DNA of 64,000 nt from Terriglobales bacterium (GTDB lineage Bacteria > Acidobacteriota > Terriglobia > Terriglobales > Acidobacteriaceae): positions 71,640-135,639 of the forward strand of contig JAICWP010000009.1 of assembly GCA_025934735.1 (NCBI GenBank), in the 5' to 3' direction. This document shows, in pieces, positions 1 to 54,422 of this stretch (positions are counted from its first letter, which is position 1; each line of letters opens with the position of its first letter). Made by a program: the position numbers and the translations under genes. The notes beneath the pieces are model-generated. The model was not told the DNA's origin. It searched no databases and saw only the letters and a program-made list of their open reading frames with translations.

Positions 1-1296
1 GCGGTGATGGCGCTCGAAACCGCGGGCAAACTGGGAGCACGGGATCTGATGTGGTTTCCCAGCGCTTCGTTTCCCTCCCAGGCGGCGGTGGTGGATTTGA
101 TGGAGGCGGGCGTCGTCCACCACATTGAAGGCAGCATGAATGGCCCCCTGGGCGCCTACACTACCCAAGGCAAAATGCGTGGTGTAGGGGTGCTGCGCTC
201 CCACGGAGGGCGCTGGCAAGCCATCCAGGATGGCGAAGTTCACATTGATATCGCGGTGATCGCCGCGCCCACCGCCGATGCCTTCGGCAATGCCGATGGG
301 TCGCACGGCAAATCTGCCTGCGGTTCGCTGGGTTTTGCGCTGGCCGATTCCATGTACGCCGAGCGCGTCATCGTGGTCACCGACAGCCTGGTGCCCTTTC
401 CCTGCGTGCCCTGGCAAATCCAGGGCAACAGCGTGGATTATGTGGTGCAGGTGGATTCCATCGGCGATCCCGGCAAGATCGTGTCCGGCACCACCCAGAT
501 CACGCGCAGCCCCGACCGGCTGCGCATCGCCGAGTTCGTGGCTCGTTTCCTGCGCGATGCCGGCATCATGCGCAATGGTTTTTCTTTTCAAGCGGGCGCC
601 GGCGGCATTGCCCTGGCGTTTGTGGATTACCTGCGCCATATGATGAAGGAGGATGGCGTCAAAGCGCGCTTTGTGCGCGGCGGCTCCACGCGCTATCTGG
701 TGGAGATGCTGCAGGAGGGCCTCACCGACTACATCCTCGATGGGCAGACCTTCGATTTGGACGGCGTGCGCTCCATCGCCGATGACCCACGCCACGTGGC
801 CACCTCGCCGTTCACTTCTTACAACTTTCACGGCAAAGGCAACTTCGCTTCAATGGTGGATGCGGTGGTGTTGGGCGCCACAGAAGTGGATGTGAATTTC
901 AACGCCAACGTGGTCACCCACTCCGATGGCCGCCTGCTGCACGGCATTGGCGGCTGGCAAAATTGCCTCTTCGCCGGCTGCAGTATTCTGGCCGTGCCCT
1001 CCTTCCGCGACCGTATTCCCGTGATTGTGGATGAGGTTACGACTATCACCGGCACCGGTGAAATGATTGACGTAGTCGCCACCGAGCGCGGCATCGCCAT
1101 CAATCCCCGCCGCCAGGACTTGCTCGATGCGGTGAAGGGCTCCCGCCTGCCTATTCGGCCGATTCAGGACATTCAGGCGGATGTGGAAAAAATCTGTGGC
1201 GGCAAGCCGACACGGCCCCGCCGCACCGACCGGCCCGTGGCCATTGTCAAATGGGTGGACGGATCGGTGCTCGACACCGTATGGCAACTAGGCTAA
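1..1296 (+). CDS. citF: Citrate lyase alpha subunit (citrate CoA-transferase), N-terminus cut by window edge
   Basis: ORF 4..1296 is open to base 1. The translation has CitF-like blocks (HGGRWQAIQDGEVHIDIAVIAAPTAD, FSFQAGAGGIALAF, LHGIGGWQNC). TAA stop at 1294-1296. Confidence 0.8.
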   Translation, partial: AVMALETAGKLGARDLMWFPSASFPSQAAVVDLMEAGVVHHIEGSMNGPLGAYTTQGKMRGVGVLRSHGGRWQAIQDGEVHIDIAVIAAPTADAFGNADGSHGKSACGSLGFALADSMYAERVIVVTDSLVPFPCVPWQIQGNSVDYVVQVDSIGDPGKIVSGTTQITRSPDRLRIAEFVARFLRDAGIMRNGFSFQAGAGGIALAFVDYLRHMMKEDGVKARFVRGGSTRYLVEMLQEGLTDYILDGQTFDLDGVRSIADDPRHVATSPFTSYNFHGKGNFASMVDAVVLGATEVDVNFNANVVTHSDGRLLHGIGGWQNCLFAGCSILAVPSFRDRIPVIVDEVTTITGTGEMIDVVATERGIAINPRRQDLLDAVKGSRLPIRPIQDIQADVEKICGGKPTRPRRTDRPVAIVKWVDGSVLDTVWQLG

Positions 1297-1367
1297 TTGA
1301 CCCTTGAAAAGCGGCTCATGCGCCACCCAATCGTCAATCAGTTTCCTTTGTGTCTCTGTGGCTGATT

Positions 1368-3698
1368 TTAAAAGCGGAACAAATAGGAAACTTTCACGAA
1401 TACCTGCCGGCCATCGTTGAGGTAGCGCCCGCGGGTGCGCAGCAGGTTGCCACTGGCATCGAAGCCCAGGGGTGAGACCAGGTTCTGCAGGTCGCTGTTG
1501 TAGCCCACGTAAATCGCGGTGCTGGGATGCACCAGGTAGGTAATGAGGAAGTCGGCGTTGAACTGCTTGCTGGTTTCCAGCGAGGTGAAGCGCTGATTCG
1601 ACAGCACCGTGGTGTACTGCGGGATCAGGCGCAGCGACAGGGCGCGCGTAATCTGATAGTTCCACTCTGATCGGATGATGTGATTGGTGAACACGCTCAT
1701 GCCCGTCGGCCGGTCCACCAACCGGTTCAGCAAGTAGGTGTTGTCTATCTTTAAATTCTTGGAAGGGTGTATGGTCAGGAACACCTGCGCCAGATCGTTG
1801 TTGTCGAGCACTGGCGCCTGGTTGATGGGCGTGTCGTAGTTTACGTTGGTGCCCCTCCCATAGAACGCTCCCAAGACGACCCATCGAAAATAGCTTGTGC
1901 CAAACGACGTACCGACCAGGTGCTGGTTGTAAGCGGCTACAGCGGGCAGGGTCGAGAAATCCACGGGCCGCAGTTGCTCCGGGTAGCTGCCGTACGGAAT
2001 AAAGTTCCAATAGGTCTGGCCCTTGAACTCGAAGGTGAGGTGCGGTTCGTAGGAGCCATCCAGAAACGTTCCGTCGTGACCGTAAATGCGGTCGAAGAAC
2101 ATGGCCGGGCCCCAGGAAACGAGGAAGCTGTTTTTAGGGCGGAAGCGGTAGCGGGCAAACTGGCGCACTTCGCGCATGTCCACGCGGGGCACGAATCCGG
2201 GATCACTCACAAAATTAGGACTGATGTCGTTGTACTGCATTTCATAGCTGGTGTGCAGGTCGTTGTATTGCAAATCTCCCTTGTACGCCGGGCCGGCCTG
2301 ATAAGTGCCGTCGAGGTTGCGGGTTGAGCTCACCACACCCTGCCCCAGCGCGGTCCAGTTCTTCCCGAATTTCAGCTGCGTGTCGAACCCGCCCACGCGG
2401 TTGAAGCTGCCATTGAACTCAAAGTCGGTGAAGATCACGCCCACACTGGACTGCTGGGCAATATCGCGCTTCAGGCGCGCGATATTGAAGTAAGCGCCCT
2501 TGTGAAAGCTGGGATCGCCGTCGGCTACGTCATAGCCCGGCCCGCGGTCGTTCACCGCGAACATGCCCAGTGAATAGGAACCTAGGCGGCCAGTTAAACG
2601 GGTGCCGAACTGCGGGTCCTCAATGCGCCGCGTGAAAACCAAATCCATGGGAGTGGAGAAATAATCCGCGTTTTCCAGGAAAAACGGACGCTTTTCCGGG
2701 AAGAAGACCTCAAAACGCTGGTTGGTGGTGATCTGGGGTTGGTCGGACTCCACCTGGCTGAAGTCCGGGTTGGCGGTCACGTCCAGCACCAGGCTGTCGT
2801 GCAGGATGAACTTGGAATCCAGCCCGAAGCGGCCCTGGTCGGCGGTCTCGAAGTAGGGCAGGGCATCGCGCGTATCCACGGCGCGGAAGGAGCGGAAGAT
2901 GCCGTAGGGAATGAATTGCATGTTGCGCCCGGGAGCGATTCCCTCCATTCCCTTGAGCGTGGCTTCCTGGTTCAGCCGCTCGTCCACGCGGCGCGTGATT
3001 TCCGGCCAGAAGGTGTTCTCGTTATTGCGCGGAATGCTGCGGTTGAGGATGATGCCCCAGCTCTGGTCAGGGTCGGAAGAAAAGCGCAGGCTCTTGAAGG
3101 GAATTGCCATCCAGACCACAAAACCCTGGCCCGTTAGCTTGCCCTTGGAGTCCCATACCGTGTCCCAGGAAGAATCGAAGTTGCCGAAGTCGCCCTGCGC
3201 CTGCTCGGCGTAGGTTCCGTCCCATTGCACGCCCAGAGCATTGCTCTGAAACACATAGGCGCGGCGCTGGTCGTGGAAGGTGTCGAGCATGACCTCCACC
3301 GTGTCGTCGTCGAAAATATCCTCGCGGCGGGAGAGGCGGGCGCGAGTTTGCCGGGGCTGATTGTTGAAGCATACGAACACAAAGTAGAGGTTCTTGCTGT
3401 CGTAGCCGAGGTACACGTGGGTGCGTTGGGTGGAAGGCGCGCCGTCGTTGGGATCGCGCTGCAAAAAACGGGAAACCTCGGCCATGTGTTCGGCCGCCGG
3501 GCCGCTGGGGTGCATTGTGAGAAAGTCTTCCAACGCGGGTGCTTGCGACAACCGGGGAATAGAGAGGACCGGGCGCGTGCGCTCGACCATAGCGGCAGCC
3601 GTGTGAGGATGGTCACGAGCAACGGCAGCCGACGCATGGAGCAAAAGGCTGCTCAGCACCAGGATGCTGAGGACGCGCAGTGGTGACAGGCGGGACAA
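1368..3698 (-). CDS. Secreted outer-membrane beta-barrel protein, DUF5916 / carbohydrate-binding-family-9-like
   Basis: 776-aa ORF with an N-terminal signal peptide (LSILVLSSLLLHASA). It has the block DDDTVEVMLDTFHDQRRAYVFQSNALGVQWDG, an alternating beta-strand pattern and a C-terminal ...SYLFRF aromatic end typical of OM barrels. Confidence 0.6.
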   Translation of the reverse strand: MSRLSPLRVLSILVLSSLLLHASAAVARDHPHTAAAMVERTRPVLSIPRLSQAPALEDFLTMHPSGPAAEHMAEVSRFLQRDPNDGAPSTQRTHVYLGYDSKNLYFVFVCFNNQPRQTRARLSRREDIFDDDTVEVMLDTFHDQRRAYVFQSNALGVQWDGTYAEQAQGDFGNFDSSWDTVWDSKGKLTGQGFVVWMAIPFKSLRFSSDPDQSWGIILNRSIPRNNENTFWPEITRRVDERLNQEATLKGMEGIAPGRNMQFIPYGIFRSFRAVDTRDALPYFETADQGRFGLDSKFILHDSLVLDVTANPDFSQVESDQPQITTNQRFEVFFPEKRPFFLENADYFSTPMDLVFTRRIEDPQFGTRLTGRLGSYSLGMFAVNDRGPGYDVADGDPSFHKGAYFNIARLKRDIAQQSSVGVIFTDFEFNGSFNRVGGFDTQLKFGKNWTALGQGVVSSTRNLDGTYQAGPAYKGDLQYNDLHTSYEMQYNDISPNFVSDPGFVPRVDMREVRQFARYRFRPKNSFLVSWGPAMFFDRIYGHDGTFLDGSYEPHLTFEFKGQTYWNFIPYGSYPEQLRPVDFSTLPAVAAYNQHLVGTSFGTSYFRWVVLGAFYGRGTNVNYDTPINQAPVLDNNDLAQVFLTIHPSKNLKIDNTYLLNRLVDRPTGMSVFTNHIIRSEWNYQITRALSLRLIPQYTTVLSNQRFTSLETSKQFNADFLITYLVHPSTAIYVGYNSDLQNLVSPLGFDASGNLLRTRGRYLNDGRQVFVKVSYLFRF

Positions 3699-9057: not shown

Positions 9058-9378
9058 CGAAACCAGGGGGTAAGCCACGTGGCCGGATGCGAGCCAAACC
9101 GCTAAACGGCTGACAGTATTGAGGGTTCCTGATTCGGGAAAGGGGAAGATTTCGTCCGGCTACTTAGAAACCAGGCAGCTGTTTGCGTCATCTAACATAT
9201 TGACTTTATTAGCTTCCACAAATCGGGGCAAAAGGTAGTCGGGTTGCCATTGGTAGCAGGCGGACAACTGTGCTAAACTTCATAGGTTTCTGCCGGCACT
9301 AAACCCGCAGTTCACACATCCCACCTCGAAAGGAAGCTGCGCCGTCCGCTCCGGGCGTCGACAGAGGGGTAGACCGTT

Positions 9379-11928: not shown

Positions 11929-12417
11929 TCAGCTTTTTTTCTCTTCCTCGCTGTGGAGCTGTTGGGAAAGATAGTTCTGCAGACCCATTTCATCAATGGC
12001 GTGGAGCTGGCCTTCCAGCCAGTCAATGTGGTGTTCTTCGTCGGAAAGGATCTTGTTGAGCAGCTCGCGGGTGCCGTTGTCGCCGGCGGCCATGCAGAGC
12101 TTGATGCCCTCATTCAGTCGCTTGACCGCGTCATATTCCACCTGCAAGTCGTTTTGCAGCTGCTGCTTGACGTTTTCGCCGATGTTTATTTTGAAGTAAT
12201 CGCTCATGTTCGGGGTGCCGTCGAGCAGCAGGATGCGTTCAATGAGCACCTCGGCGTGGCCCATCTCCTCAATAGATTCAGCCTTGGTCAGCCCCGCCAG
12301 CCTGGAGTAACCCCAGTTCTCACACATTTCGGAGTGCAGGAAATACTGGTTGATGGCGGTGAGCTCCGCCTTGAGCACCTGTTGCAGCACCGCAATAATT
12401 TTGGGATCGCCTTTCAC
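11929..12417 (-). CDS. bfr: Bacterioferritin
   Basis: MKGDPKIIAVLQQVLKAELTAINQYFLHSEMCENWGY...EEMGHAEVLIERILLLDG...DEEHHIDWLE, which includes the di-iron and haem-Met ligand pattern of Bfr. Confidence 0.9.
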   Translation of the reverse strand: MKGDPKIIAVLQQVLKAELTAINQYFLHSEMCENWGYSRLAGLTKAESIEEMGHAEVLIERILLLDGTPNMSDYFKINIGENVKQQLQNDLQVEYDAVKRLNEGIKLCMAAGDNGTRELLNKILSDEEHHIDWLEGQLHAIDEMGLQNYLSQQLHSEEEKKS

Positions 12418-12509
12418 GAGCGCCTCCTTGCAGGGGTCAAATATATCATCTAGAGGACACCTGTTAGCAGGACGCGGCTGGTAGTTGTTAGCTTGTAGGC
12501 GGGAGCGAA

Positions 12510-13331
12510 TTACGCCTTTACAGGCGCGAGGGGGTCTGCGGCTTCGATTTCAGCTTGCTTCTCCTGGCCAGCTGGAGCAGCGGGAGCAGTCGCCGGGATA
12601 GGCAGGGGCGGCACCGCGTCGGTGTTATCGAGCAGCCGATGATGCAGGCAGTAGAGCGCCAGCTCGAGGCGATCGGAAACTCCCAGCTTGTCGTAAACCT
12701 TGCGCAGATAGTTCTTCACGACCTGCTCAGTGGTGTTGACGCGTACCGCGATTTCCTTGTTCTTCATGCCCTGGGCCACGCAGGCCACAATCATCATTTC
12801 CTTTTGCGTGAGGTGCACCTTGGCGGCGGGGGCGATAGGGCGGGTAGCCTGGGTACGGTACGCGTGCAGCACCCAATTGACCGCCTGCTCATCCAGCCAA
12901 ATATCGCCTTTAGCCACCTTGTGAATGCAGGCCACCAGGGTCTCTGGCGGAATGGAGCGGTCCACAATGCCATAGGCGCCGCGGCGCAAGTATTCCAGAA
13001 CCTCTTCCTGGCTGGTGCCGGCGGTGAGCACCACCAGCTTGGAACTGGGGGCACGGCGCATCAGTTCGGAGATGGCTTCGGCGGGCTCAGCGGCGAGCGT
13101 GGTTTCGAACAGAATCACGTCGGCACTGAACTTGGCCAGGGCCGCGATGGCCTGGCCGTAACTTTCGGCTTGGCCGACCACGCGAATGTCGTCTTCCAGG
13201 GCAAAGATCTTGCGCAGCCCGACGCGGAAAATGGTTTGGCTGTCGGCCACGATCACGCGCGTGAACGCCTTGCCCTGGCTGTCCTGCGCGTTCTCGCTAC
13301 CGTCCTCAAGTTGGACCGAGCTGCTGGCCAT
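12510..13331 (-). CDS. LuxR/NarL-family response regulator with atypical (pseudo-)receiver domain
   Basis: C-terminal GerE HTH (LTQKEMMIVACVAQGMKNKEIAVRVNTTEQVVKNYLRKVYDKLGVSDRLELALY). The receiver aligns to NarL but reads VIVADSQ (DD becomes AD), DVILFETT (phospho-acceptor D becomes E) and GIVDRS (conserved K becomes R). Confidence 0.85.
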   Translation of the reverse strand: MASSSVQLEDGSENAQDSQGKAFTRVIVADSQTIFRVGLRKIFALEDDIRVVGQAESYGQAIAALAKFSADVILFETTLAAEPAEAISELMRRAPSSKLVVLTAGTSQEEVLEYLRRGAYGIVDRSIPPETLVACIHKVAKGDIWLDEQAVNWVLHAYRTQATRPIAPAAKVHLTQKEMMIVACVAQGMKNKEIAVRVNTTEQVVKNYLRKVYDKLGVSDRLELALYCLHHRLLDNTDAVPPLPIPATAPAAPAGQEKQAEIEAADPLAPVKA

Positions 13332-13336
13332 AATTC

Positions 13337-13654
13337 TTATTGCTTCCTCGTGGGCGAGGTTCCCACACGTTCCAAACCGTACTCGTCAATGACCACGCCT
13401 ACCCAGTAGGCTTGGTTTTCCTGAAAGCAGCGCACGGCGCGACCGCGGCAATTGACCATTACGCCGGCGGTGGTGCCCAGCACGGTGGCGGGCATGCAGA
13501 TGCTGAATTCCACGGCGGAGCCTATGGGAATCTCCGTATCAGTTTGAAAGAGGACGCCGTTGGCGGAGATGTTACGAGTCTGCCCGGGATGGTCGCCGCT
13601 GGGGCTGTGAAATTCCACCGGCAACTGCAGAGGGAAACGGGCCGCGCTCTGCAT
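13337..13654 (-). CDS. Stand-alone PilZ-domain protein (N-terminal RxxxR motif degenerate)
   Basis: Start set at ATG 13654 (MQSAARFPLQLPVEF...). N-I-S-A-N-G fits the D/NxSxxG motif. Paralogous to 37648..37980 (shared RFPLQLP, GS.VEF.I, GR.VR, VID.Y). The stop lies 5 nt before the start of the regulator gene. Confidence 0.7.
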   Translation of the reverse strand: MQSAARFPLQLPVEFHSPSGDHPGQTRNISANGVLFQTDTEIPIGSAVEFSICMPATVLGTTAGVMVNCRGRAVRCFQENQAYWVGVVIDEYGLERVGTSPTRKQ

Positions 13655-13877
13655 ATCGTGGTAGCGAGCCGAGTGTTGCGGCGCTTCCGCTACCGCCAAA
13701 TGTGGCCTGATGTCTTTGGACACGCTGTTTCTCCACGATGGAGGCAGCCGGGGGTAGCGCGCTCCAGCCCACACGTTGGATACGTAGGGGAGCTTACAAC
13801 GGCGTTGGGAGCGGGAAAAGTTACGAAAGTTATGGCCTGTTCGGGTAGGGTTGTGAGCGCGGGGGTTCACCCCCGCC

Positions 13878-13950
13878 TTGCACGGGGCAGAGCCCCGTGT
13901 CCACACGCTCACACTTGCACGGGGCAGAGCTCCGTGTCCACACGCTCACA
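13878..13950. repeat. Tandem duplication (period 37 nt) of a 36-nt hairpin-containing unit
   Basis: TTGCACGGGGCAGAGCCCCGTGTCCACACGCTCACA (13878-13913) is repeated at 13915-13950 with one mismatch. Each unit holds the hairpin CACGGGGC-AGA-GCCCCGTG. Confidence 0.9.
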
Positions 13951-34304: not shown

Positions 34305-36058
34305 TGCTGGGCAGAACGAAGTTCGCGAAGTCAGCACCCTGGCTGCGCGTGTTGCTTCTGTGCTGCCTGGCGCTGGCCGCCTTGCCCGCCGCGGCGGAAT
34401 GGCGCATCACCGACTTTCATTCCACGGTGAACCTTGACCGCAAGGGCAGGGCCAATGTCAGCGAGCGTATCGGCCTGGCCTTCAACGGCACCTACCACGG
34501 CATCTACCGTGATATTCCGCTCGAGTATCCGGGACCGCACGGCACCCATTACACCCTGTTTCTGAATATCACCGGGATCACGGATGGCTCCGGCAACCAA
34601 CTTAAATACGACTCCAGCATCCGCAACGGCTATCGCCACCTGAAGATCTACATTCCCGGGGCGGAGGACACCACCAAGACGGTGGAGATTGACTACAGCA
34701 TCCCCAACGCGGTTCGCTATTTTCCCAGCTACGACGAGTTCTACTGGAACGTGACCGGCAACGACTGGCCCGTACCCATTGACCGCGCTTCCGCTTTTGT
34801 GCACCTCCCGGAAAGCGCCGCAGGCAGCCTGCGGGCCCAGGCTTTCACTGGCCTGTACGGCTCCATTGGCCACGACGCCACGGGGGAAGTGAACGGCGCC
34901 AATGCGCGCTTCGAGACCACGAGTCCGCTCCCGATGCGGGGTGGCCTGACCATTGACATTTACATTCCAAAAGGCATTCTGCAACAGCCTGGACCGCTGA
35001 CCCGGGCGAGCTGGTTCTTGCGCAGCAACCCTCTGGTGCTGCTGCCGCCCTGGGCTTTCGTGGTGATGTTCTGCCTGTGGTGGTTCAAAGGCCGCGATCC
35101 CAACCCGGGGCTCTCAGTGGCTCCCATGTACGGGCCGCCCACGGACATGACGCCGGCGGAGGTGGGCTCGCTAATTGATGACACGGTCAATCCCCGCGAC
35201 ATCACCTCCACCATTGTGGACCTGGCGGTGCGCGGCTTCATCAAGATTGAAGAGACGGTGGACAAGGGGTTAGTGTTCCACCATAAGGACTACATTTTTC
35301 ATCTGCTCATTCCGCAGCCCAAGTGGACGGGCCTGGCGCCGCACGAGCAGGTCATGCTAAAAAATATTTTTGCCGGCGAGGTGAACGAAACCCGCCTTTC
35401 CAGCCTGAAGAACCGCTTCTACACTGCCATTCCGGTCATTCGCGACGACATCATGTCAGCCCTGCGACGCAAGGGCATGTACCTGATTGACCCAGAGTCC
35501 GCCAATGCCTACCTGCTGGGCGGAGCAATACTGGTGGCCGCGCCATTCATCCTGCTGGCCGTGACCGGCACAGCTGATGTTTTTGGGTCGGTACCGATTG
35601 CCGTTGTGACCATCCTGGTGGCTGCGCTGATCGTGTGGCTGTTCGGGCGCCGGATGACCTGCAAGACCTTGAAGGGGGCGCGCACCCGGGTTGCTATCCT
35701 CGGTTTTGAGGAATTCATGAACCGGGTGGATGCCGACCGCATTAAGCGCATGCCCCCGGACACGTTTGAGAAGTTCCTGCCTTTCGCTATGGCACTGGGA
35801 GTAGAGCACCACTGGGCCCAGGCCTTTGCTGGAATCGTGCAGAACCCACCCACCTGGTATGTCTCTCCTAACGGCGTCATGTTCAACCCCATCCTGTTCT
35901 CCAGCAGCATACATAGCATGTCGTACGACATGAACCAGGTGTTTGTCTCCGCACCCCGAGCCAGTTCCAGCGGTTCCGGCTGGAGTGGCGGAGGGTTTGG
36001 CGGGGGTGGCGGCTTCTCTGGCGGGGGCTTCGGCGGCGGCGGCGGCGGGGCCTTCTGA
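34304..36058 (+). CDS. DUF2207-domain membrane protein (LemA partner) with Gly-rich C-terminus
   Basis: The start overlaps the lemA stop (TAATG). Signal peptide, a large extracytoplasmic domain, TM segments and a tail SGWSGGGFGGGGGFSGGGFGGGGGGAF. Confidence 0.8.
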   Translation: MLGRTKFAKSAPWLRVLLLCCLALAALPAAAEWRITDFHSTVNLDRKGRANVSERIGLAFNGTYHGIYRDIPLEYPGPHGTHYTLFLNITGITDGSGNQLKYDSSIRNGYRHLKIYIPGAEDTTKTVEIDYSIPNAVRYFPSYDEFYWNVTGNDWPVPIDRASAFVHLPESAAGSLRAQAFTGLYGSIGHDATGEVNGANARFETTSPLPMRGGLTIDIYIPKGILQQPGPLTRASWFLRSNPLVLLPPWAFVVMFCLWWFKGRDPNPGLSVAPMYGPPTDMTPAEVGSLIDDTVNPRDITSTIVDLAVRGFIKIEETVDKGLVFHHKDYIFHLLIPQPKWTGLAPHEQVMLKNIFAGEVNETRLSSLKNRFYTAIPVIRDDIMSALRRKGMYLIDPESANAYLLGGAILVAAPFILLAVTGTADVFGSVPIAVVTILVAALIVWLFGRRMTCKTLKGARTRVAILGFEEFMNRVDADRIKRMPPDTFEKFLPFAMALGVEHHWAQAFAGIVQNPPTWYVSPNGVMFNPILFSSSIHSMSYDMNQVFVSAPRASSSGSGWSGGGFGGGGGFSGGGFGGGGGGAF

Positions 36059-36247
36059 TCTAAGCTGCGATGTGCGCTGCTGCACGCGAGAGTCTCCCGT
36101 TCTTCAGCAGCGCCCTCCAGCAACACGGCCCTGTGCTGGCCGTGGTACCCGCTTCTCTCCGGCAATCCAGACGCCTGCAAACACCGCGCGTCATATCCAC
36201 ATCCAATGTCAAGAGAAGGGAAAGGTTCTCGGCGGAAAGGAATAATC

Positions 36248-36778
36248 ATGGCTGAAACCAAACGTACGGAAGAGATGCTGCCCCCGGATGTGCCGGTTTT
36301 GGATCCGGAGCGGGAATTGCCGGAAGGTACGCCCAGTAACCCTCGCCTGAACGAAGCGGCAGAGGCCATCGGTGGCGCTCTGGGCACCGCGACGCGCCAG
36401 GTCCAGAACGCGCGTGAGCGGTTTACCGTGATCCGGGGCGGTGGAGAGGGTGGCCCCTCCAGCACTGAGCAGCTGAAGCAAACGGCTCGAGAGAAAGTTG
36501 AAGACGTCCAGGAGAAATTGGGAGAGCTTAAGGAGCGGGCCAGCGCCGCCGTCGAGCAGGCCAGGATCCAGGCCACGGCCAAGCTGGAGGAGGCCAGAGT
36601 TAAGGCTTCGCGACTGGCGCAGAGTGCCAGGGATTCGGCGACCGAACGCGCCCGCATGGTTCGCTGGCGCGCCGTGCGCCTTACCAACGAGCGGCCCCTG
36701 GCGGTCATAGGAGCTATCGGCGGAGCGGCTTTTTTGTTGGGTATCTTTTTGCGGCTGGGAAGGGGGAGACGTGGCTGA
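36248..36778 (+). CDS. ElaB/YqjD-like (DUF883) C-tail-anchored membrane protein
   Basis: ATG 36248. Coiled, charged body (EKVEDVQEKLGELKERASAAVEQARIQATAKLEEARVKA) and C-terminal anchor ERPLAVIGAIGGAAFLLGIFLRLGR. Confidence 0.6.
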   Translation: MAETKRTEEMLPPDVPVLDPERELPEGTPSNPRLNEAAEAIGGALGTATRQVQNARERFTVIRGGGEGGPSSTEQLKQTAREKVEDVQEKLGELKERASAAVEQARIQATAKLEEARVKASRLAQSARDSATERARMVRWRAVRLTNERPLAVIGAIGGAAFLLGIFLRLGRGRRG

Positions 36779-37196
36779 TCAGAGCGTCAATTTTAACGGG
36801 CGAAGCTTTGCCGGAGTCGTGAACGAGGTCAAGGATGAGCTGAAGGAATTCCTGCAGACCCGCATCACCATGTTGAAGGCGGAATTGGGCGAGAAAATGC
36901 GCACCTTCAAAACCGCCCTTCCGATGATAGCCACTGCTGTTGTGTTCTTAACAACAGCTTTCGTGCTGTTCACCCTCTGCCTGGTGGGGCTGATTTCTGT
37001 TGCGTTTTACGGCAATCCGTTCCGCTGGTTCTTGTCCTTCATCATTGTGGCCGTGCTGTACTCCATTGTGGGAGGCATGGCGGCGGCGTTTGGGCTGAAG
37101 GAACTGCGTGCCCAGGGGCTGATGCCCAAGAAAACCATCAAGGTGCTGAAAGAAGATCAAATCTGGCTGCAGCATGAAGCGAGGACCCAAGTATGA
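36771..37196 (+). CDS. Phage-holin-family / YqjE-like (DUF1469) membrane protein
   Basis: GTG start overlaps the upstream stop by 8 nt. N-terminal amphipathic helix plus two TM segments (ALPMIATAVVFLTTAFVLFTLCLVGLI; FLSFIIVAVLYSIVGGMAAAFGL). Confidence 0.6.
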   Translation: MADQSVNFNGRSFAGVVNEVKDELKEFLQTRITMLKAELGEKMRTFKTALPMIATAVVFLTTAFVLFTLCLVGLISVAFYGNPFRWFLSFIIVAVLYSIVGGMAAAFGLKELRAQGLMPKKTIKVLKEDQIWLQHEARTQV

Positions 37197-37411
37197 GCGC
37201 GAGCAACATTCCTACTGATCTGCTGGAACTGCAGGCGGCCGAGCAACGCCGCCGACTGCATAACTCCGTAGCCGAACTGCGCGTGCAAATGCGGGAGAAG
37301 CTGGACCTGCGGCGCAATGCCCGGCGCTACTTCTGGCCGGCTTCGGCGGTGGTCGGCGTGTGCGGACTGATGCTGGGTTACGGCTTCGGCGGCATCCTCA
37401 CGCGTGACTAA
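37193..37411 (+). CDS. YqjK-like small membrane protein
   Basis: ATGA overlap with the upstream stop. 72 aa: LELQAAEQRRRL... followed by one TM segment. Confidence 0.45.
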   Translation: MSASNIPTDLLELQAAEQRRRLHNSVAELRVQMREKLDLRRNARRYFWPASAVVGVCGLMLGYGFGGILTRD

Positions 37412-37647
37412 TTAACGAGTGCGTTGCGAGCACCGGATACCAAGTTCCGGGTCCGGAACTCCCGGGCTCGCCAATGGCTCGGAAGTGCTAGGTACTCCCT
37501 TAGTTACTAAAGTCATGGGAACCTACGTGCTTAAGCCTTGTGGTACATCTCTCCTTTATTCCCGGCTTCCGCCGTGGTATAAGGCTTGCCAGCACTAAAC
37601 TCACAACCCAGTAGGGCCTGTAAAAAGGCCAAACGGGAGGAGGTCCC

Positions 37648-37980
37648 GTGGCGGAAAACCGGACGGGGAAGCGTTTCCCTCTGCAACTGCCAATTCGTGT
37701 TCATAAAGCGGAAGCCGGCGCCGAGCATAAGGCGGTGACCGGTAACCTGAGCGCCGCCGGAGTTTACATCCAGGGAGATGCTTCGCTGGATGTCGGGTCC
37801 CAGGTAGAGTTTGAAATCACCTTGCCGCCGGAGGTAACCGGCAGCGATCACAACGTGACCATCCAGGGCCGCGGGCGGGTAGTACGCACCGACACCCCGC
37901 CGAAGGGCCGCAACGGAGACAAAAATTTTCGTGGGGTGGCCTGCGTGATTGATTCGTACGAGTTCGTTCGCAATACATAG
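37648..37980 (+). CDS. Stand-alone PilZ-domain protein (complete c-di-GMP motifs)
   Basis: GTG start after a GGGAGGAGG RBS. R-T-G-K-R fits RxxxR and N-L-S-A-A-G fits D/NxSxxG. Paralog of 13337..13654. Confidence 0.8.
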   Translation: MAENRTGKRFPLQLPIRVHKAEAGAEHKAVTGNLSAAGVYIQGDASLDVGSQVEFEITLPPEVTGSDHNVTIQGRGRVVRTDTPPKGRNGDKNFRGVACVIDSYEFVRNT

Positions 37981-38000: not shown

Positions 38001-38672
38001 ATGGTGAAATTGATTCTGGCCGATAATCAGGCAATATTCCGGGCGGGGATCGCCAAAGTATTGGCGGTGGAGGACGACATGAGAATTGTCGCCCAAGCCC
38101 AGACTCTCGAGCAGTTGCTCATGGCGGTGGACAAGTTCCGCGCCGCCGTGGTTGTAGTAGCAAGCAACTTCCATCCTGACCTCACACCTATCGTGCAGGC
38201 CGCCGCTAAAGCCAAGACCCGTGTCGTCGTGCTGGCCGATACGGGCGAGACCTCCAGTCGCTTTATGAACACCGGCGCCCATGGTGTGGTTTACCGCAAC
38301 GTGACCGGTCCGGCGCTGGTGGAATGCGTACGCAAGACGGCCGCCGGCGAAAGCTGGGTGCAGGATTTAGCCGTGCCCACCGAGCTTACCGAGAACGATA
38401 TGGTGGGATTGCGGGTGCGCGATCGCCTGACCGCGAAGGAATTGCGCATCGTGGCGCTGATTGTGCAGGGCTATAAAAATAAGGAAATTGCCACCCAACT
38501 GGGCACCACCGAGCAGGTGATCAAGAATTATCTGCGCAATGTGTACGACAAAATCGGGGTGTCTGACCGGCTGGAGCTGGCGCTGTTCACTATTCACCAT
38601 CGCATACTGGCGGAAGCCGCCGCTGCCACCGCCGCAACCATGACCGCCGCACCCGCTCCCCAGGCAAACTGA
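38001..38672 (+). CDS. LuxR/NarL-family response regulator with atypical (pseudo-)receiver domain
   Basis: GerE HTH (LTAKELRIVALIVQGYKNKEIATQLGTTEQVIKNYLRNVYDKIGVSDRLELALF). The receiver reads LILADNQ, AAVVVVASNF (no acidic residue at the phospho-acceptor position) and GVVYRN (K becomes R). It starts 20 nt after the PilZ stop. Confidence 0.85.
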   Translation: MVKLILADNQAIFRAGIAKVLAVEDDMRIVAQAQTLEQLLMAVDKFRAAVVVVASNFHPDLTPIVQAAAKAKTRVVVLADTGETSSRFMNTGAHGVVYRNVTGPALVECVRKTAAGESWVQDLAVPTELTENDMVGLRVRDRLTAKELRIVALIVQGYKNKEIATQLGTTEQVIKNYLRNVYDKIGVSDRLELALFTIHHRILAEAAAATAATMTAAPAPQAN

Positions 38673-38802: not shown

Positions 38803-39174
38803 TCAGTCGGAGGCGGCCTTTTCGTCGCTTTTGAGCAGTTCGTTGACGATGGTGACCAGTTCTTCGGGATTGACGGGTTTTTCCAGGTAGAGGTCGGCCA
38901 ACGGTTCGGCGGCCTGAAAGGCTTCGGCCACATAACCGGACACCACCACTACGGGTAGGGCGGGCCGGTTTTTGGCGGCCTGCACTACAGCGCGGCCATT
39001 GGCGTCGCCCAGTCGCCAATCGGTGACCACGGCGTCGTAGTTGTTGTGGGAGAGCTTGGCGATGGCATCGTGGGCGGAAGTGGCGGCGGTGACGGTGTGG
39101 CCGGCGGACTCCAGGATGGCGCACTTCAGCGCCACCACATTCGGCTCATCGTCCACACAGAGAATTCTGGCCAT
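38803..39174 (-). CDS. Single-domain CheY-like response regulator (canonical receiver)
   Basis: ILCVDDEP, VVTDWRLGD (acceptor Asp), VVVSG and LEKP are all present. Confidence 0.85.
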   Translation of the reverse strand: MARILCVDDEPNVVALKCAILESAGHTVTAATSAHDAIAKLSHNNYDAVVTDWRLGDANGRAVVQAAKNRPALPVVVVSGYVAEAFQAAEPLADLYLEKPVNPEELVTIVNELLKSDEKAASD

Positions 39175-39391: not shown

Positions 39392-42010
39392 ATGAGCGGG
39401 AAGACGGTTTCCCACTATCGTATCGTCAGCCAGATTGGCGGCGGCGGGATGGGTGTGGTCTACGAGGCCGAGGACTTGAACCTGGGCCGCCGTGTAGCCC
39501 TCAAATTCCTTTCCCAAGAAGTAGCGGGCGATCCCGCCGTATTGGAGCGCTTTCAGCGTGAAGCCCGCGCAGCTTCCGCACTCGACCACCCCAACATCTG
39601 CACGGTTTACGATTTCGGGCAGCAGGACGGGCAGCCCTTTCTGGCCATGCAGTTGCTCGACGGGCAGACGCTCAAGCAGCGTATCGCCGGCAAGCCGATG
39701 GATCTGGATACCGTCCTGGAGCTTGCCATCCAGATCGCCGATGCCTTGGACGCCGCCCACGAGAAGGGCATCGTGCACCGCGACATCAAGCCAGCCAATA
39801 TCTTTGTCACCACCCGCGGGCAAGCCAAGATCCTGGACTTTGGTCTGGCCAAGTCTCTGCACCCCGTAATGGCGGCCCAGGCGACTGTCTCCGGCGCTGC
39901 GACGAGCAGCACAGCAGGCGATTCGCTGACCAGTTCCGGGGTCACACTGGGCACCGTCGCCTACATGTCGCCGGAGCAGATTCGCGGCAAGGAACTGGAC
40001 GCCCGCAGCGACCTTTTCTCCTTCGGTGCCCTCCTCTACGAGATGGTTACGGACACCGTGCCTTTTCGCGGCACAACTTCTGGCGCGGTTTTCGACTGCA
40101 TCCTGAACCGCGCTCCTACGGCAGCCGTCCGCCTCAATCCAGAGATCTCTCCTCAGCTGGCAGAGATCATTGAAAAGGCGCTGGAGAAGGATCGCGATCT
40201 GCGTTATCAGACCGCCGCAGAGATGCGCGCCGACCTGAAACGTCTGAAGCGAGACACCGACTCGGATCGCATACTGGCCACGGCTGACGCGCGGCCACCG
40301 CGGGCTAGTGATTATCGTTGGATCGTTTTGGCGGTAGCTGGCGCAGCAGCGCTGGCCGTGGCGGCGGTGTTCCTTCTGCGCGCTCCTCTTCCCGCGCCGC
40401 GCATTACTGGCTCGCGACAACTGACCAACGACGGCCTGCAGAAAATAATGCTGGTGGGCGACGGCAGCCGGCTTTACGTAACCGAGAGCTCCGGGACCAA
40501 TCAGACCATCGCGCAAGTTTCGGTAAACGGAGGCGAGACTGCGCCCCTCGATTTGCCCCTGAGCAATGCTATGGCCGGTGACATTTCGGCCGATGGGTCC
40601 GAGTTGCTGGTGGCGCAGTCGGCTCCAACGAACAGACCGCTTTGGTCACTGCCCCTTCCGGCCGGCGCACCTCGCCGTCTCGGTTCCATGACCCGCGGCG
40701 GCATCTGGGCGCCCAACGGGCAGCTTTTCTATCCGGTGGGACGGGACATCTATATTGCCGACCACGACGCCGGCAATCCGCGCAAGCTGGCCACGGCTCC
40801 CGGCATTGTGGTCAGCGCGGCTTATCCGCCCGACGGCAGCCGAATTCGCATGACCCTGGCCGATGAGACCACCAACAATTCCTCCCTGTGGGAGATGCGC
40901 GCAGACGGCAGCGGCATGCACGAACTGCTCCCCGGCTGGAATCGTCCCCCGCAGGAATGCTGCGGCAGATGGACGCCGGATGGCCGGTACTACGTTTTTC
41001 AGAGCACTCGCGAGGGAGCGACCAACCTGTGGGTAATGGCGGAGAGTTCGTCATTCTTGCACAGGAGCTCGCACCAGCCAATGCAGCTCACTGCGGGTCC
41101 ACTCTCCTTTTTCCGACCCCTGCCCAGCCGCGACGGCAAGAAGCTCTACGCGATTGGCATGCAACCGCGAGCCGAACTGGTGCGGTATGAAGCGAAATCA
41201 GGCGCCTTCCTGCCGTACCTGGGCGGCATCTCTGCCGGCGAAGTGGAGTTCTCCCGAGACGGCAAATGGATCACCTACGTCAGTTATCCCGAAGACGTCC
41301 TGTGGCGCAGCCGACCTGACGGCAGCGAGCGCCTGCCGTTGACCTTTCCGCCTATGCGAGCCGCACTTGCGCATTGGTCGCCGGATGGCCGCCAGATTGC
41401 CTTTTCCGGGATTACTCCGGGGCAGCCCTGGAAGGTTTTTCTCGTGCCCCGGGACGGCGGAGGTTCTACTGCGCTTACGAATGAAAATGAAGGAGAAACT
41501 GATCCCACCTGGTCAGCCGATGGCAAATACCTGGCGCTGGGCCACCAGCCCCGGGGCCAGCAGCATTTGTACATCGAGGCTGTCGAGTTGCAGACGCGCA
41601 AGGCCTTGCGCCTGCCCGGCTCGCAGGATGTATTTGGCCCGCGCTGGTCGCCGGATGGGCGCAGCATTGTTGCCATTTCCTATGACAATACCAAGCTAAT
41701 GCTCTTCGACACAGAGAAGCAGAGCTGGCGCCAGCTAGCCACCAACTTGGGATTGATTGGGTACATCACGTGGGCTGCCGATTCGCGCTTCCTTTATTTC
41801 GATACTTTGTTCAGCAGCCAACCGGCCTTCTACCAGTTGCGCATCAGCGACGGCGAAATGACCAAGATAGTGGACCTGAAATCGCTGCGTACTTTCCCCG
41901 GTCAGTTTGGCCCGGGCTCGTGGACGGGTCTGGCTCCCGACAAAACACCGCTATTCGTGCGCGACATCAGTACGCAAGAAATCTATGCGCTAGACTGGCA
42001 GCTGCCGTAA
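39392..42010 (+). CDS. Serine/threonine protein kinase fused to a TolB-like/WD40-like beta-propeller
   Basis: Hanks kinase motifs ([32 protein letters not shown]), a TM segment ([19 protein letters not shown]), then repeated ...SPDG..I.F... propeller blades. Confidence 0.9.
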
Positions 42011-48400: not shown

Positions 48401-49447
48401 GGCGACGGCAGCGTGACCGGCAACGTTACCGCGACGCAGGCTGTCTACGACATGTATTCCTGCTTCACGGGTAACGAGACCAGCGCGCTGTACGGAATTG
48501 ACGTGCCTGGCGGCTTCGGTATTACTACCAGTCCGGGCGGTTGTTTCCCGGCTTGCGCAACCATTAACGGAAAGCAAACCAATGGCTACGATTTCTACAA
48601 CCCGCAGTGGTCGTCACTGTATGCCTGGCGCAGCATTGGGAACAGCGTCTACAACGGGCTGCAGCTCAGCTTGCGCAAGCGGATGAGCAACGGGCTGAAC
48701 TTCGACCTGAACTACACCTACTCCAAGTCCATAGATGTCGGATCGAATGCGGAGCGTATTAATGAGTTCGAAGGCTTCGGTGTGGGTTCCAGCCAGATCA
48801 TCAATGCCTGGTCGCCGAAGCAGTTGCGTGCCGTTTCCGATTTCGACAACACCCACCAGATCAACGCCAACTGGGTCTATGAGCTTCCGGTCGGCCGCGG
48901 CAAGCACTTTGGCAGCGGCATGGGAGGCGTGCTCAACGCCCTGGTAGGCGGCTGGTCCATTTCGGGCCTGTGGCGCTGGTCCAGCGGCTTCCCATTCAGT
49001 GTGGGGCCGGGTCTGGGCTTCTGGGGTACGGACTGGCAGCTCACTTCCAACGTGGTGCAGAACGGCCCTATGCCGAAAACTGGTAGCTTCAATGTCGCCG
49101 CTACTCCCGGTGGTTCGGTGCTGCCTAACGTCTTTCAGGATCCAGCCGCGGCGATTAAAGATTTCCGGCTGGCTTTTCCCGGAGAGTCAGGACAGCGTAA
49201 TAACCTGCGTGGTCCGGGCACATTCGACATTGATGCCAGCCTGGGCAAGACCTGGAAGGTTACCGAAGGCAAGGACTTCAGCTTCCGCTGGGAAACCTTC
49301 AACATCACCAACACCCCGCGGTTTGACGTAGGCCAGATGCAGTTCAATGGCAACAACACGCTGGCAACTGCCGCGACTTTCGGCACATTCACCAACACTC
49401 TGAACAAGCCGCGGCTGATGGAGTTTGCCCTGCGGTTCACATTCTAG
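45494..49447 (+). CDS. Giant TonB-dependent-receptor-like outer-membrane protein with carboxypeptidase-regulatory-like domain (second copy)
   Basis: Start set at ATG 45494 (MRIAKLIFLFAFAALLSVYVFAQ). Contains GTVTDPKGAVIPGATVTISNPQTGYTRTVKSNSQGVYQFLEVPPATYKLTSDASGF and terminal ...ALRFTF. Same architecture as 17150..20704. Confidence 0.85.
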   Translation: MRIAKLIFLFAFAALLSVYVFAQTGTSSLRGTVTDPKGAVIPGATVTISNPQTGYTRTVKSNSQGVYQFLEVPPATYKLTSDASGFATLTQANVILMVNTPAMLDLGMQVAGAATTVEVTGAAPLVNTQDASLGHAFNALQIQDLPFEGRDPAGILSLQAGVAYTGNNDQAMPQSQDSRSGSVAGARSDQANITIDGVDNNDPILGQAFQGALRATLDSLQEFRVTTTGGNADEGRSSGAQVVLVTKSGTNDFHGTLYEYHRPTFTTANDWFVKNAQLGAGEPNIPGKLIRNTFGGAIGGPIKKDRLFFFATYEGQRLRENTSIVRTVPSADLRNGFISYITDTGTVQRLSPADIASMDPNCSTTCPLGPGANPAVMQIFKQYPLPNTNIVGDGFNFRGFQFTAGAPAKRDTYIVKLDYNLTQNGNHRLFVRGNLQNDSVAGIGNDGPEFPGDPPNVTNKGNNKGISVGYTAILRDNLINNFRYGFIREGIDNVGLQNSAFVNFRGLNDLNGQTPTTRVTVPMHNLVDDVTWTKGKHTFQFGGNIRIINDERLGNTDSFNFGQTNVSWLQAAGIAGSGGTLDPGNFGFPAVSSDFGQSYDLPMAALAGLVPFVEGEYNRNKTAALLPQGAFVPRHFKAHEAEWYAQDTLRVTPSLTLTFGARYTLLQPPYEVNGNQVAPTIDLSQFYTQRGQLAQQGLPYNVCPPDPNKCTNLVGLGLSGPANGKPPLWNWDYGNIAPRFSFAWAPSYDSGILKHITGGSAGKFSVRGGYGIYYDHFGEGIVNSFDRNGSFGLTTLIDNPAGTQTPDTSPRFSQPSVTTIPTMSAIGNILPPPPSGPFPSIPPADLGGGGFAITWGLDGKMHTPYSHVVNFSVTRELPKNFVVEASYVGRFAHHLLQEEDMSQPVDLVDPKSHMDYFTAATLLAKAANAGVPIQQIKNIPFWQNFFPSAAGAAATQLGFGFGPGNGCAPGDGSVTGNVTATQAVYDMYSCFTGNETSALYGIDVPGGFGITTSPGGCFPACATINGKQTNGYDFYNPQWSSLYAWRSIGNSVYNGLQLSLRKRMSNGLNFDLNYTYSKSIDVGSNAERINEFEGFGVGSSQIINAWSPKQLRAVSDFDNTHQINANWVYELPVGRGKHFGSGMGGVLNALVGGWSISGLWRWSSGFPFSVGPGLGFWGTDWQLTSNVVQNGPMPKTGSFNVAATPGGSVLPNVFQDPAAAIKDFRLAFPGESGQRNNLRGPGTFDIDASLGKTWKVTEGKDFSFRWETFNITNTPRFDVGQMQFNGNNTLATAATFGTFTNTLNKPRLMEFALRFTF

Positions 49448-53859: not shown

Positions 53860-54104
53860 AGTGACCTCCCGGAGCGCAAAAGTGACTGTCTTGGGCCAAG
53901 AAGGCGAACTCGACTCGGCGGCGTGCCTGCGGCCTCTGATTGGGTAAATGACACAGGGCCGAATGTCATCCGCTGTTTTCCGCCATACGGGAAATGGCGG
54001 TCGCAGGACAACCGAGCCAGCAGTAAATCCGGTTCACGAAACAAGCGGCGAACGTCTTTGGTAACTTGCCCGCTGGTACGGGTGGCGTGTTTGAATTTGT
54101 CAGA

Positions 54105-54422
54105 ATGGAGAAGCGTCCGGCAACCCGCTACGATTTTCGCTGCGAAGCGGAATTTTGCAAGCGGGGGAGCAGCGCCACATTTCACGGCTTTTTGAGCGAC
54201 ATCAGCCTGACCGGCTGCTATATGGAGATTATGACGCCCGAGCCGGTGGGCACCAACGTGGAAATATTGTTTCAGGCCAATGGAGCGCTCGTGCGCCTGC
54301 CCGGCGTGGTGCGCGTGGTGCACCCCAGCATGGGGATGGGCATTGAATTTGCTCAGCTATCCCCGGAGTCAGCCCAGGCCCTGCACGGACTGGTCAAGGC
54401 GCAGGCCGCCGGAGCATCGTAG
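54105..54422 (+). CDS. Stand-alone PilZ-domain protein (third copy, complete motifs)
   Basis: Start set at ATG 54105 (MEKRPATRYDF...). R-P-A-T-R fits RxxxR and D-I-S-L-T-G fits DxSxxG. Confidence 0.8.
   Translation: MEKRPATRYDFRCEAEFCKRGSSATFHGFLSDISLTGCYMEIMTPEPVGTNVEILFQANGALVRLPGVVRVVHPSMGMGIEFAQLSPESAQALHGLVKAQAAGAS

Follow-up and report, generated by a model that had tools for sequence, protein, structure and literature searches.

Conserved pairing of stand-alone PilZ proteins with NarL-type pseudo-response regulators in Terriglobales: a candidate kinase-independent input

A 64,000-nucleotide (nt) stretch of DNA from a Terriglobales bacterium of the Acidobacteriota (contig JAICWP010000009.1, positions 71,640 to 135,639; 60% G+C), hereafter the window, holds two copies of a two-gene module in which a gene for a stand-alone PilZ protein lies directly upstream of one for a NarL/LuxR-type regulator with a degenerate receiver domain. 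Module 1, on the minus strand, comprises PilZ1 (13337..13723) and regulator 1 (12510..13331; 273 amino acids, aa), and module 2, on the plus strand, PilZ2 (37648..37980; 110 aa) and regulator 2 (38001..38672; 223 aa). Read from the sequence, the pairs are marked by co-orientation, tight coupling, invariant synteny, loss of phosphotransfer residues and putative ligand motifs, and the kept pairing suggests that PilZ, not a kinase, controls the regulator. We propose, with a probability of about 0.5, that PilZ is the input partner of the pseudo-response regulator and exerts physical, ligand-modulated control over it, and we consider some functional coupling of the two proteins quite probable.

Conservation of the PilZ–regulator pair

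A sequence-only reading of the window had placed the module 1 open reading frames (ORFs) on the minus strand with 5 nt between them, as we find: the PilZ1 stop codon TAA (13339..13337) is followed by gaatt and then by the ATG of regulator 1 at 13331. It had also made its proposal hinge on synteny of the pair in other genomes, and the adjacency proved to be invariant in ~155 loci spanning regulator identities of 53-95%. For module 1 we compared 80 loci from distinct GTDB species (regulator identity 53-85%), and PilZ was directly upstream on the same strand in all 79 that had upstream DNA, with PilZ identities of 40-89%; for module 2, where 75 of 80 metagenome loci had at least 330 nt upstream usable for the PilZ check, the same was true of 75/75. 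The median PilZ–regulator gaps of 15 nt (module 1) and 18 nt (module 2) are operon-like, and the pairing is beyond chance. Flanking genes vary: around module 1 a bacterioferritin gene occurs in 25/80 loci and two upstream gene clusters in 57/80 and 52/80, and the window's remaining neighbours do not recur among the 80 loci; each neighbour of module 2 occurs in at most 8/80 loci, the convergent receiver, Ser/Thr kinase and upstream membrane-protein genes of the window not being conserved across that set (kinase 5/80).

A wider genome scan matched at least 557 relatives. The window's relatives are almost exclusively metagenome-assembled genomes (MAGs) labelled Terriglobales, Terriglobia or Acidobacteriota, and GCA_025933835.1 carries an identical locus. 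Typical module 1 pairs were also seen in four MAGs labelled Verrucomicrobiia, Actinomycetota, Candidatus Aquilonibacter and Saccharimonadales (L027, L033, L061 and L079); since their proteins are 55-61% identical to Terriglobales ones, these contigs are most likely mis-binned and not a sign of wider distribution. Against a plasmid collection, PilZ2 gave no tblastn match and regulator 1 matched ordinary NarL-type regulators only (at most 35% identity), with a kinase gene annotated under several of the matches.

Module 2 had been described as a paralogous copy of module 1. Paralogy stands for both proteins, regulators 1 and 2 being 41% identical over 212 aa (E-value, E, 8e-54) and PilZ1 and PilZ2 37% identical (E 6e-20), and a tblastn search of the window turned up no further copy of any of these proteins; the acceptor residue does not carry over, as it is Ala in the second regulator and not Glu. 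The similar divergence of the PilZ proteins and of the regulators fits duplication of the pair as a unit.

The same loci could be explained by a shared operon whose products make no contact, the regulator being constitutive or otherwise controlled and autoregulating the operon, and PilZ being an output, namely a cyclic di-GMP (c-di-GMP) effector that acts on another target. Single-domain PilZ partners are indeed diverse (CheR1, SagS, HinK; PMC10912698), autoregulation could act through the conserved promoter region, with its direct repeat, ahead of the module 1 operon, we found no PilZ–regulator fusions, and the genome has other stand-alone PilZ genes, e.g. at 54066..54422. Yet the tight pairing is invariant while all other neighbours change, and PilZ and regulator are paralogous at similar divergence, as expected for duplication of a unit, a pattern more typical of interacting partners than of a regulator and one arbitrary target. 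We judge this explanation unlikely.

Pseudo-receivers and the PilZ ligand site

Searches with profile hidden Markov models (HMMs), as advised in the sequence-only reading, bore out the receiver plus GerE architecture given for regulator 1, with Pfam matches to GerE (E 1e-12) and Response_reg (E 1e-9, 38.9 bits; cut-off 30.2 bits). Regulator 2 matches GerE (E 3e-13) and its receiver is below Pfam detection, and NarL-like models of NCBIfam match both regulators over their full length (E 5e-19 for regulator 2) yet remain sub-threshold. The solved structure nearest to regulator 1, NarL/FixJ-type by these matches, is NarL 1a04 (E 1e-24). Its layout comprises a pseudo-receiver at residues 24-160 (D30, S31, E76, T103, R125) and a GerE helix-turn-helix at 176-231, flanked by a disordered N-terminal tail (1-19) and a disordered Pro/Ala-rich C-terminal one (236-273).

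Alignment with NarL pairs the acceptor D59 with E76 (DVILFETT) and K109 with R125 (GIVDRS), as had been proposed; a third proposed change, D13 to Ala, was off by one residue, because A29 aligns with NarL I12 and D13 is kept as D30. The acidic residue lost from the DD pair is the second, NarL D14, which is S31 in regulator 1. Counted over the 79 species-level genomic loci of module 1 with the receiver present (80 for the Lys and Thr positions), Glu occupies the acceptor position and Asp the first DD position in 79/79; the second DD position is Thr in 57, Ser in 21 and Gln in 1, never Asp; the Lys position is Arg in 77/80 and Lys in 3/80; and the Thr position (S87 in NarL) is Thr in 52/80.

AlphaFold2, run with an 82-sequence alignment, modelled regulator 1 with a mean predicted local distance difference test score of 79.6 as a normal (beta-alpha)5 receiver and a four-helix helix-turn-helix domain, preceded by an extra helix (148-160) with the invariant Trp145 at its start. 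E76, T103 and R125 are found where strands beta3 (C-terminal end), beta4 and beta5 end, and so occupy the canonical acceptor, Thr and Lys positions. Foldseek matched the model to LiaR, VraR, NarL, RcsB and DesR, and the receiver alone gave template-modelling scores of 0.85-0.91 at a root-mean-square deviation of ~2 Å. Regulator 1 has, then, the receiver fold and GerE domain of NarL/FixJ proteins and lacks their acceptor Asp, DD pair and Lys. With Glu invariant at the acceptor position and placed by the model at the end of beta3, its receiver is a genuine pseudo-receiver. The alignment puts no other acidic residue at the acceptor site, in line with the earlier view that regulator 1 would have no normal phospho-acceptor. 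Nor is a cognate kinase gene adjacent, as had also been noted: the nearest histidine kinases are at 55109..56572 and 58864..60723, and no HisKA/HATPase gene is present within ~15 kb of either module or among the conserved neighbours of orthologous loci, though a cognate orphan kinase may be encoded farther away.

The pseudo-receiver of regulator 2 is more degenerate, with D8 and N9 in the DD pair, Ala for the acceptor Asp and Arg for the Lys; in the module 2 family alignment the acceptor is Ala or Ser, the Lys position is Arg, and the helix-turn-helix is nearly invariant. Asp to Glu at the acceptor, Asn at the second DD position and Lys to Arg are the kinds of substitution commonest in pseudo-receivers (PMC12632262), and those found here are Asp to Glu, a polar residue at the second DD position (Ser/Thr in module 1, Asn in module 2) and Lys to Arg. 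The acceptor Glu had been taken for a phosphomimetic. It is indeed at that site, but it cannot be a principle common to both modules, because module 2 pairs PilZ with an Ala/Ser acceptor; what the two modules have in common is the PilZ partner.

PilZ would be incidental if the regulator sensed c-di-GMP itself, like VpsT, or were phosphorylated non-canonically (on Glu/Asp30, or by a nearby Ser/Thr kinase). VpsT reportedly binds c-di-GMP through a W[F/L/M][T/S]R motif where helix alpha6 begins, and this motif occurs in 0/82 locus-derived and 0/240 database family members of the regulators; their equivalent tetrads, WL[D/E]x and W[V/I]QD, are acidic where VpsT has Thr/Ser-Arg. Like VpsT, a LuxR/CsgD-family protein that binds c-di-GMP, has a sixth helix after the receiver and loses binding on the R134A change (PMC3359988), regulator 1 has an extra helix (148-160, with Trp145 at its start); a search of the PDB with the alpha5-alpha6 segment of the regulator alone returned chance matches only. 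The Ser/Thr kinase gene at 39392..42010 does lie near module 2, but such a neighbour occurs in only 5/80 module 2 loci, and the Mg-binding and Lys residues of the receiver are lost. Both variants of this explanation strike us as very improbable.

As to the PilZ proteins, the HMM check found Pfam PilZ (PF07238; cut-off 22.5 bits) above cut-off in each, at E 6e-10 and 39.8 bits for PilZ1 and at E 2.8e-7 and 31.3 bits for PilZ2, as had been claimed. PilZ1 had been read as a 105-aa protein from ATG 13654, but that ATG is internal and the protein very probably starts at GTG 13723, with GGAG 7 nt before it, and has 128 aa. This start is favoured because in many of the 79 orthologues compared the codon aligned to ATG 13654 is CTG, GTT, GTA, GTC, TTA or CTC, because the orthologues repeatedly have, 21-26 codons upstream, a GTG accompanied by a Shine-Dalgarno-like sequence, and because public gene calls at identical or near-identical loci give 128 aa; residues encoded 5' of the ATG position, [R/H]-Y-x-[D/E], are conserved as well. 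PilZ2 also starts with GTG, with GGGAGGAGG just before it.

We anchored the RxxxR position by alignment to solved PilZ structures (8u0i, 4i86). In PilZ1 it reads QSAAR, which agrees with the single Arg pointed out earlier, and the upstream non-ATG start that was to be checked as a means of restoring RxxxR does not do so, the longer N-terminus still reading QSAAR. NISANG of PilZ1 conforms to [D/N]xSxxG, as had been seen. QxxxR is present in 66/78 PilZ1 orthologues and RxxxR in 12/78, the latter being the more divergent ones (L035, L043, L048, L064, L065, L071, L072, L074, L076, L078-L080); the second Arg of the motif is invariant and [D/N]xSxxG is retained in 79/79. The motifs of PilZ2 are canonical (RTGKR, which lines up with RxxxR of 8u0i and 4i86, and NLSAAG) and are kept in its orthologues (RxxxR in 74/74, [D/N]xSxxG in 76/78), and PilZ2 is predicted to bind c-di-GMP. 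The N-terminal RxxxR of PilZ receptors is thus absent from PilZ1 and present in PilZ2. Both are single-domain proteins (110-128 aa), and 120 homologues listed, of 105-133 aa, consist of PilZ alone. In the AlphaFold2 model, PilZ1 would adopt the PilZ beta-barrel (31-120) with a flexible, disordered N-terminal tail (1-30), and its Foldseek matches were the PilZ domains of BcsA, VCA0042, MotI, MrkH, PA0012 and Alg44.

Since the first Arg of RxxxR is missing, c-di-GMP binding by PilZ1 is doubtful. In TssZ the Arg-to-Ala changes R5A/R9A in RxxxR abolish binding (PMC10912698), from which weakened binding is predicted for PilZ1 with QxxxR; the protein may bind c-di-GMP weakly or not at all, and as a partner it may be gated differently or need no ligand. 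That the other parts of the site are kept suggests continued use of it. The presence of RxxxR in the more divergent orthologues indicates, as judged without a tree, that the ancestral pair probably had a canonical PilZ, and module 1 of the window would represent a derived clade that exchanged the first Arg for Gln and acquired a longer N-terminus.

PilZ, or at least PilZ1 with its QxxxR, could on the other hand be a c-di-GMP-blind partner or co-factor, comparable to the non-binding PilZ proteins of xanthomonads and Pseudomonas (PA2960), with the signal entering elsewhere, e.g. via protein level, redox or a small ligand bound by the pseudo-receiver. In its favour, QxxxR has become fixed in 66/78 orthologues of module 1 alongside a new conserved N-terminal extension with [R/H]-Y-x-[D/E], characterised PilZ proteins lose binding when the RxxxR arginines are changed to Ala (e.g. 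TssZ R5A/R9A; PMC10912698), and non-binding PilZ proteins that depend on accessory proteins are known (PMC3131395). However, the 79/79 conservation of [D/N]xSxxG and the invariant second Arg in PilZ1 argue that the nucleotide site is still selected, the full motif is found in the deep-branching module 1 PilZ proteins and in all those of module 2 (RxxxR 74/74), and Gln could still hydrogen-bond guanine. Neither a blind PilZ nor a signal entering elsewhere seems to us a likely account.

The window regulators have many relatives. A profile search of 1.84 billion cluster representatives (a 50%-identity library; E ≤ 1e-30) returned 800 clusters, and among 114 full-length top representatives the acceptor was Ala in 31, Ser in 24, Glu in 23 and Asp in 16, and the Lys position Arg in 91; this sequence pattern therefore places the window regulators in a large and diverse NarL-type clade with pseudo-receivers. 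The pair recurs in P0369 (a 105-aa PilZ 24 nt upstream) and in P0367 (locus L173, with PilZ upstream and a ferritin gene downstream), which represent different 50%-identity clusters, and the PilZ proteins of the distant pairs L171 and L173 have an intact RxxxR (RQARR, RNARR). Elsewhere in the clade, no PilZ ORF accompanies P0366 (Glu type), which is preceded by an ECF (extracytoplasmic function) sigma factor gene, nor is there a PilZ beside P0380 (Ser type), which has a convergent single receiver gene downstream, and P0387 too has a convergent receiver gene downstream; P0372, P0375 and P0383 come with just 219-308 nt of upstream DNA, and no PilZ lies within 308 nt upstream of P0372.

Proposed mode of control and its precedents

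We envisage each module as a two-gene operon in which the single-domain PilZ would be the signal-input adaptor of a NarL/LuxR-type pseudo-response regulator that would no longer be phosphorylatable on the canonical Asp. PilZ would bind the pseudo-receiver domain and thereby shift the equilibrium of dimerisation or DNA binding, and c-di-GMP, which PilZ would bind with its barrel and its flexible N-terminal tail bearing RxxxR, would alter the PilZ–regulator contact, so that the second messenger would take the place of the histidine kinase as input. We guess that the regulator is constitutively active and that PilZ antagonises it in a manner modulated by c-di-GMP, as in TssZ–HinK; modulation by PilZ of an intrinsically active regulator is the version favoured by analogy with TssZ–HinK and Rem–MirA. 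The physical interaction, the bound face and the sign of regulation are what we infer. More tentatively, and with somewhat less conviction than for an input role of PilZ as such, the modules may be kinase-less ‘two-component systems’ in which PilZ has replaced the phosphorylation input, c-di-GMP or (in the QxxxR clade) another cue gates the pseudo-receiver, and the pair has duplicated and diverged into insulated parallel pathways; this would amount to a general explanation, predictable from genomes, of how pseudo-response regulators of one large class are switched.

Several points weigh against PilZ as the input partner. We derive both the PilZ–regulator contact and ligand binding from genomic context, and operon membership is equally compatible with PilZ as output and not input. 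In 66/78 PilZ1 orthologues the first Arg of RxxxR is missing, and no PilZ–regulator fusion that would corroborate contact was found among the loci and long regulator homologues. Sampled sister subfamilies are without PilZ, the pairing being limited to particular subfamilies, and PilZ is thus not obligatory for such receivers. Finally, the loci of named source are all from Acidobacteriota MAGs, mostly Terriglobales/Terriglobia, bar the four probably mis-binned ones, and, most loci being from one order, operon inheritance contributes to the counts.

Control through a PilZ partner has precedents, as single-domain PilZ adaptors with protein partners include MapZ–CheR1, HapZ–SagS and TssZ–HinK (PMC10912698, PMC12564702). 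TssZ of Pseudomonas aeruginosa (PA0012) keeps the transcription factor HinK from binding DNA by forming a complex with it, which c-di-GMP weakens (PMC10912698); TssZ is also the closest solved PilZ by sequence to ours (8u0i, E 0.0023) and a Foldseek match at 23% identity. The likeness is that of a single-domain PilZ adaptor and a transcription factor, although we only infer the contact here; HinK is LysR-type and was found by a yeast two-hybrid screen, whereas our regulators are NarL-type pseudo-response regulators and the pair is an invariant, duplicated operon. SagS is a hybrid kinase, and HapZ binds its receiver domain. Binding of HapZ (PA2799) to the histidine kinase SagS (cited in PMC10912698) resembles our proposal in that a single-domain PilZ adaptor ties c-di-GMP to two-component signalling, but the partner there is a histidine kinase and not a DNA-binding pseudo-receiver regulator. 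In Agrobacterium, the non-phosphorylatable atypical response regulator Rem is controlled by a bound anti-activator, MirA (PMC12632262), and so combines a pseudo-receiver regulator with direct control by a partner protein, a contact only proposed here; MirA, however, is not described in that review as a PilZ or nucleotide receptor, and its expression is under another two-component system.

Regulators of the VpsT/CsgD type share with ours a LuxR helix-turn-helix, a non-canonical receiver and an extra helix, and VpsT links c-di-GMP to transcription, but it binds c-di-GMP itself, whereas here a separate PilZ would carry the nucleotide site. MrkH of Klebsiella, a Foldseek match for the PilZ1 model, likewise has PilZ couple c-di-GMP directly to transcription, but its PilZ domains are within the DNA-binding protein and ours are separate polypeptides. 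ChxR of Chlamydia is an aspartate-less, pseudo-receiver regulator with Glu at the acceptor position. Glu there is the commonest pseudo-receiver substitution and is typical of plant pseudo-response regulators (PMC12632262); Glu-type regulators show the same kinds of substitution as module 1, and regulation independent of phosphorylation, but none is reported with a PilZ partner, and module 2 has Ala/Ser.

The pairing had been put forward as not being a described system, and as regards a PilZ gene with a NarL-type pseudo-response regulator this agrees with literature searches and term searches of recent reviews, which yielded no description; the principle, by contrast, is already known from TssZ–HinK, HapZ–SagS and MirA–Rem. 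Literature searches also returned no published work on PilZ, c-di-GMP or c-di-GMP control of transcription in Acidobacteria, and nothing relevant on QxxxR in PilZ or on PilZ with an atypical response regulator. A 2025 review in the Journal of Bacteriology describes the regulation of pseudo-receivers as largely unknown, ‘a mystery’, with few examples of partner proteins (PMC12632262). Two paralogous families, widespread in Terriglobales and other soil Acidobacteriota and each with an invariant PilZ, are a testable candidate for the missing input, and RxxxR in module 2 versus QxxxR in module 1 provides a natural comparison. If true, an input role of PilZ would extend PilZ-adaptor signalling, after CheR1, SagS and HinK, to NarL-type regulators and give a first handle on c-di-GMP-dependent transcription in Acidobacteria; if the proteins do not interact, the finding shrinks to a conserved operon of two common domain types.

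Upstream DNA and neighbouring genes

A conserved block upstream of module 1, with an exact match in the window, defines a candidate promoter/operator region (13791..13832, minus strand). The module 1 consensus is GTTCCATGACTTCGGTAACTTTGCA and, ~17 nt further on, GGGGTGTAAGCT, and the window has the direct repeat TAACTTT-CG-TAACTTT (TAACTTTCGTAACTTT, 13817..13832) and, ~20 nt downstream, TGTAAGCT at 13791..13798. The core GTAACTTT is found in 66/79 module 1 upstream regions at a consistent distance, and the block looks like a candidate promoter with the direct-repeat site at or next to the -35 region. Upstream of module 2, an extended -10-like element, CCGTGGTATAAG (37572..37583, plus strand), lies ~65 nt before the PilZ2 start, the motif TCCGTGATATAAC is present in 55/71 upstream regions, and a GGAAC-N3-GTTCC inverted repeat is conserved further upstream of the operons. 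With distinct upstream elements shared by the module 1 and by the module 2 operons, the two pairs seem to be served by separate promoters. Just past the small ORF 37193..37411, and ~190 nt before PilZ2, comes a perfect inverted repeat of 8 bp, AGTTCCGG-GT-CCGGAACT (37443..37460); its arms contain the GTTCC/GGAAC half-sites of the conserved module 2 inverted repeat, and it may serve as terminator or operator. Rfam and tRNA scans of the window detected neither a c-di-GMP riboswitch nor any other RNA family.

The module 1 direct-repeat motif, TRACTTYNNTAACTTT, has five window matches with at most two mismatches (9201..9216, 13817..13832, 34318..34333, 37500..37515 and 49256..49271) against 0.24 expected, one of them ~165 nt upstream of rpoD and another ~135 nt upstream of PilZ2 on the opposite strand. 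We discarded it as a shared operator of the two modules, as it stands upstream of PilZ2 in the window lineage only (2/71 module 2 loci). Between the amidohydrolase gene and the PilZ1 promoter region is a tandem duplication in perfect register (13877..13950; 2 x 37 nt, 97% identical) that is found nowhere else in the window. A G+C-rich hairpin of 8 bp, CACGGGGC-TCT-GCCCCGTG, is present in both 37-nt copies, another, GCGGGGG-TGAA-CCCCCGC, comes after them, and the whole is probably a terminator or an element like the repetitive extragenic palindromic (REP) sequences for the upstream gene.

The bacterioferritin gene of the window (11929..12417, minus strand) is co-oriented with regulator 1 and follows it after 92 nt, with a -10/-35-like site (12467..12440) between them, and in most of the 25/80 bacterioferritin loci the gene comes straight after the regulator on the same strand; it is a possible member of the regulon. 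In most Terriglobales genomes two genes of ~440-460 aa, TldD/PmbA-type protease-like by eye, are just upstream of the PilZ1 operon on the same strand (e.g. 127..1440 and 1586..2971 in L002; equivalents in 52-57/80 of loci L001-L080). The window lineage is without this pair and has amidohydrolase and aminotransferase genes there instead.

Downstream of regulator 2, at 130 nt and convergent with it, is a gene for a canonical single-domain receiver (38803..39174, minus strand; 123 aa) with DD, D52 and Lys present, which is absent at this place from the 80 module 2 metagenome loci; the Ser/Thr kinase gene lies beyond it. Receivers ~75-85% identical to this one by eye (L165 3235..3615, L176 794..1168) are convergent and directly downstream of two other pseudo-receiver LuxR subfamilies (P0380, P0387), and the single receiver may be a second kind of partner for the clade, e.g. 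by heterodimerising with the pseudo-receiver. Just upstream of module 2 (36206..37411) are genes for a 190-aa protein without a family match and for a Holin-X/Phage_holin_3_6 membrane protein, and a 72-aa ORF, a trio kept only in the closest relative (L081).

Apparent PilZ–regulator fusions were rejected on inspection. In L040 (with overlaps in L045 and L080) a TAA stop precedes the regulator and tblastn had aligned across it, and the ~60-135-residue extensions of the long regulator homologues P0182, P0216, P0168, P0164, P0419, P0434, P0411, P0391 and P0503 are all without PilZ, being due to wrongly called starts or consisting of junk, a second receiver or a sigma-70 region 2 domain. The window holds, besides, a third stand-alone PilZ gene, unrelated to both modules, at 54066..54422 (plus strand; 118 aa, Pfam E 2e-10, RPATR and DISLTG), near the histidine kinase gene 55109..56572 on the minus strand, and the genome evidently encodes further putative c-di-GMP receptors of the PilZ type.

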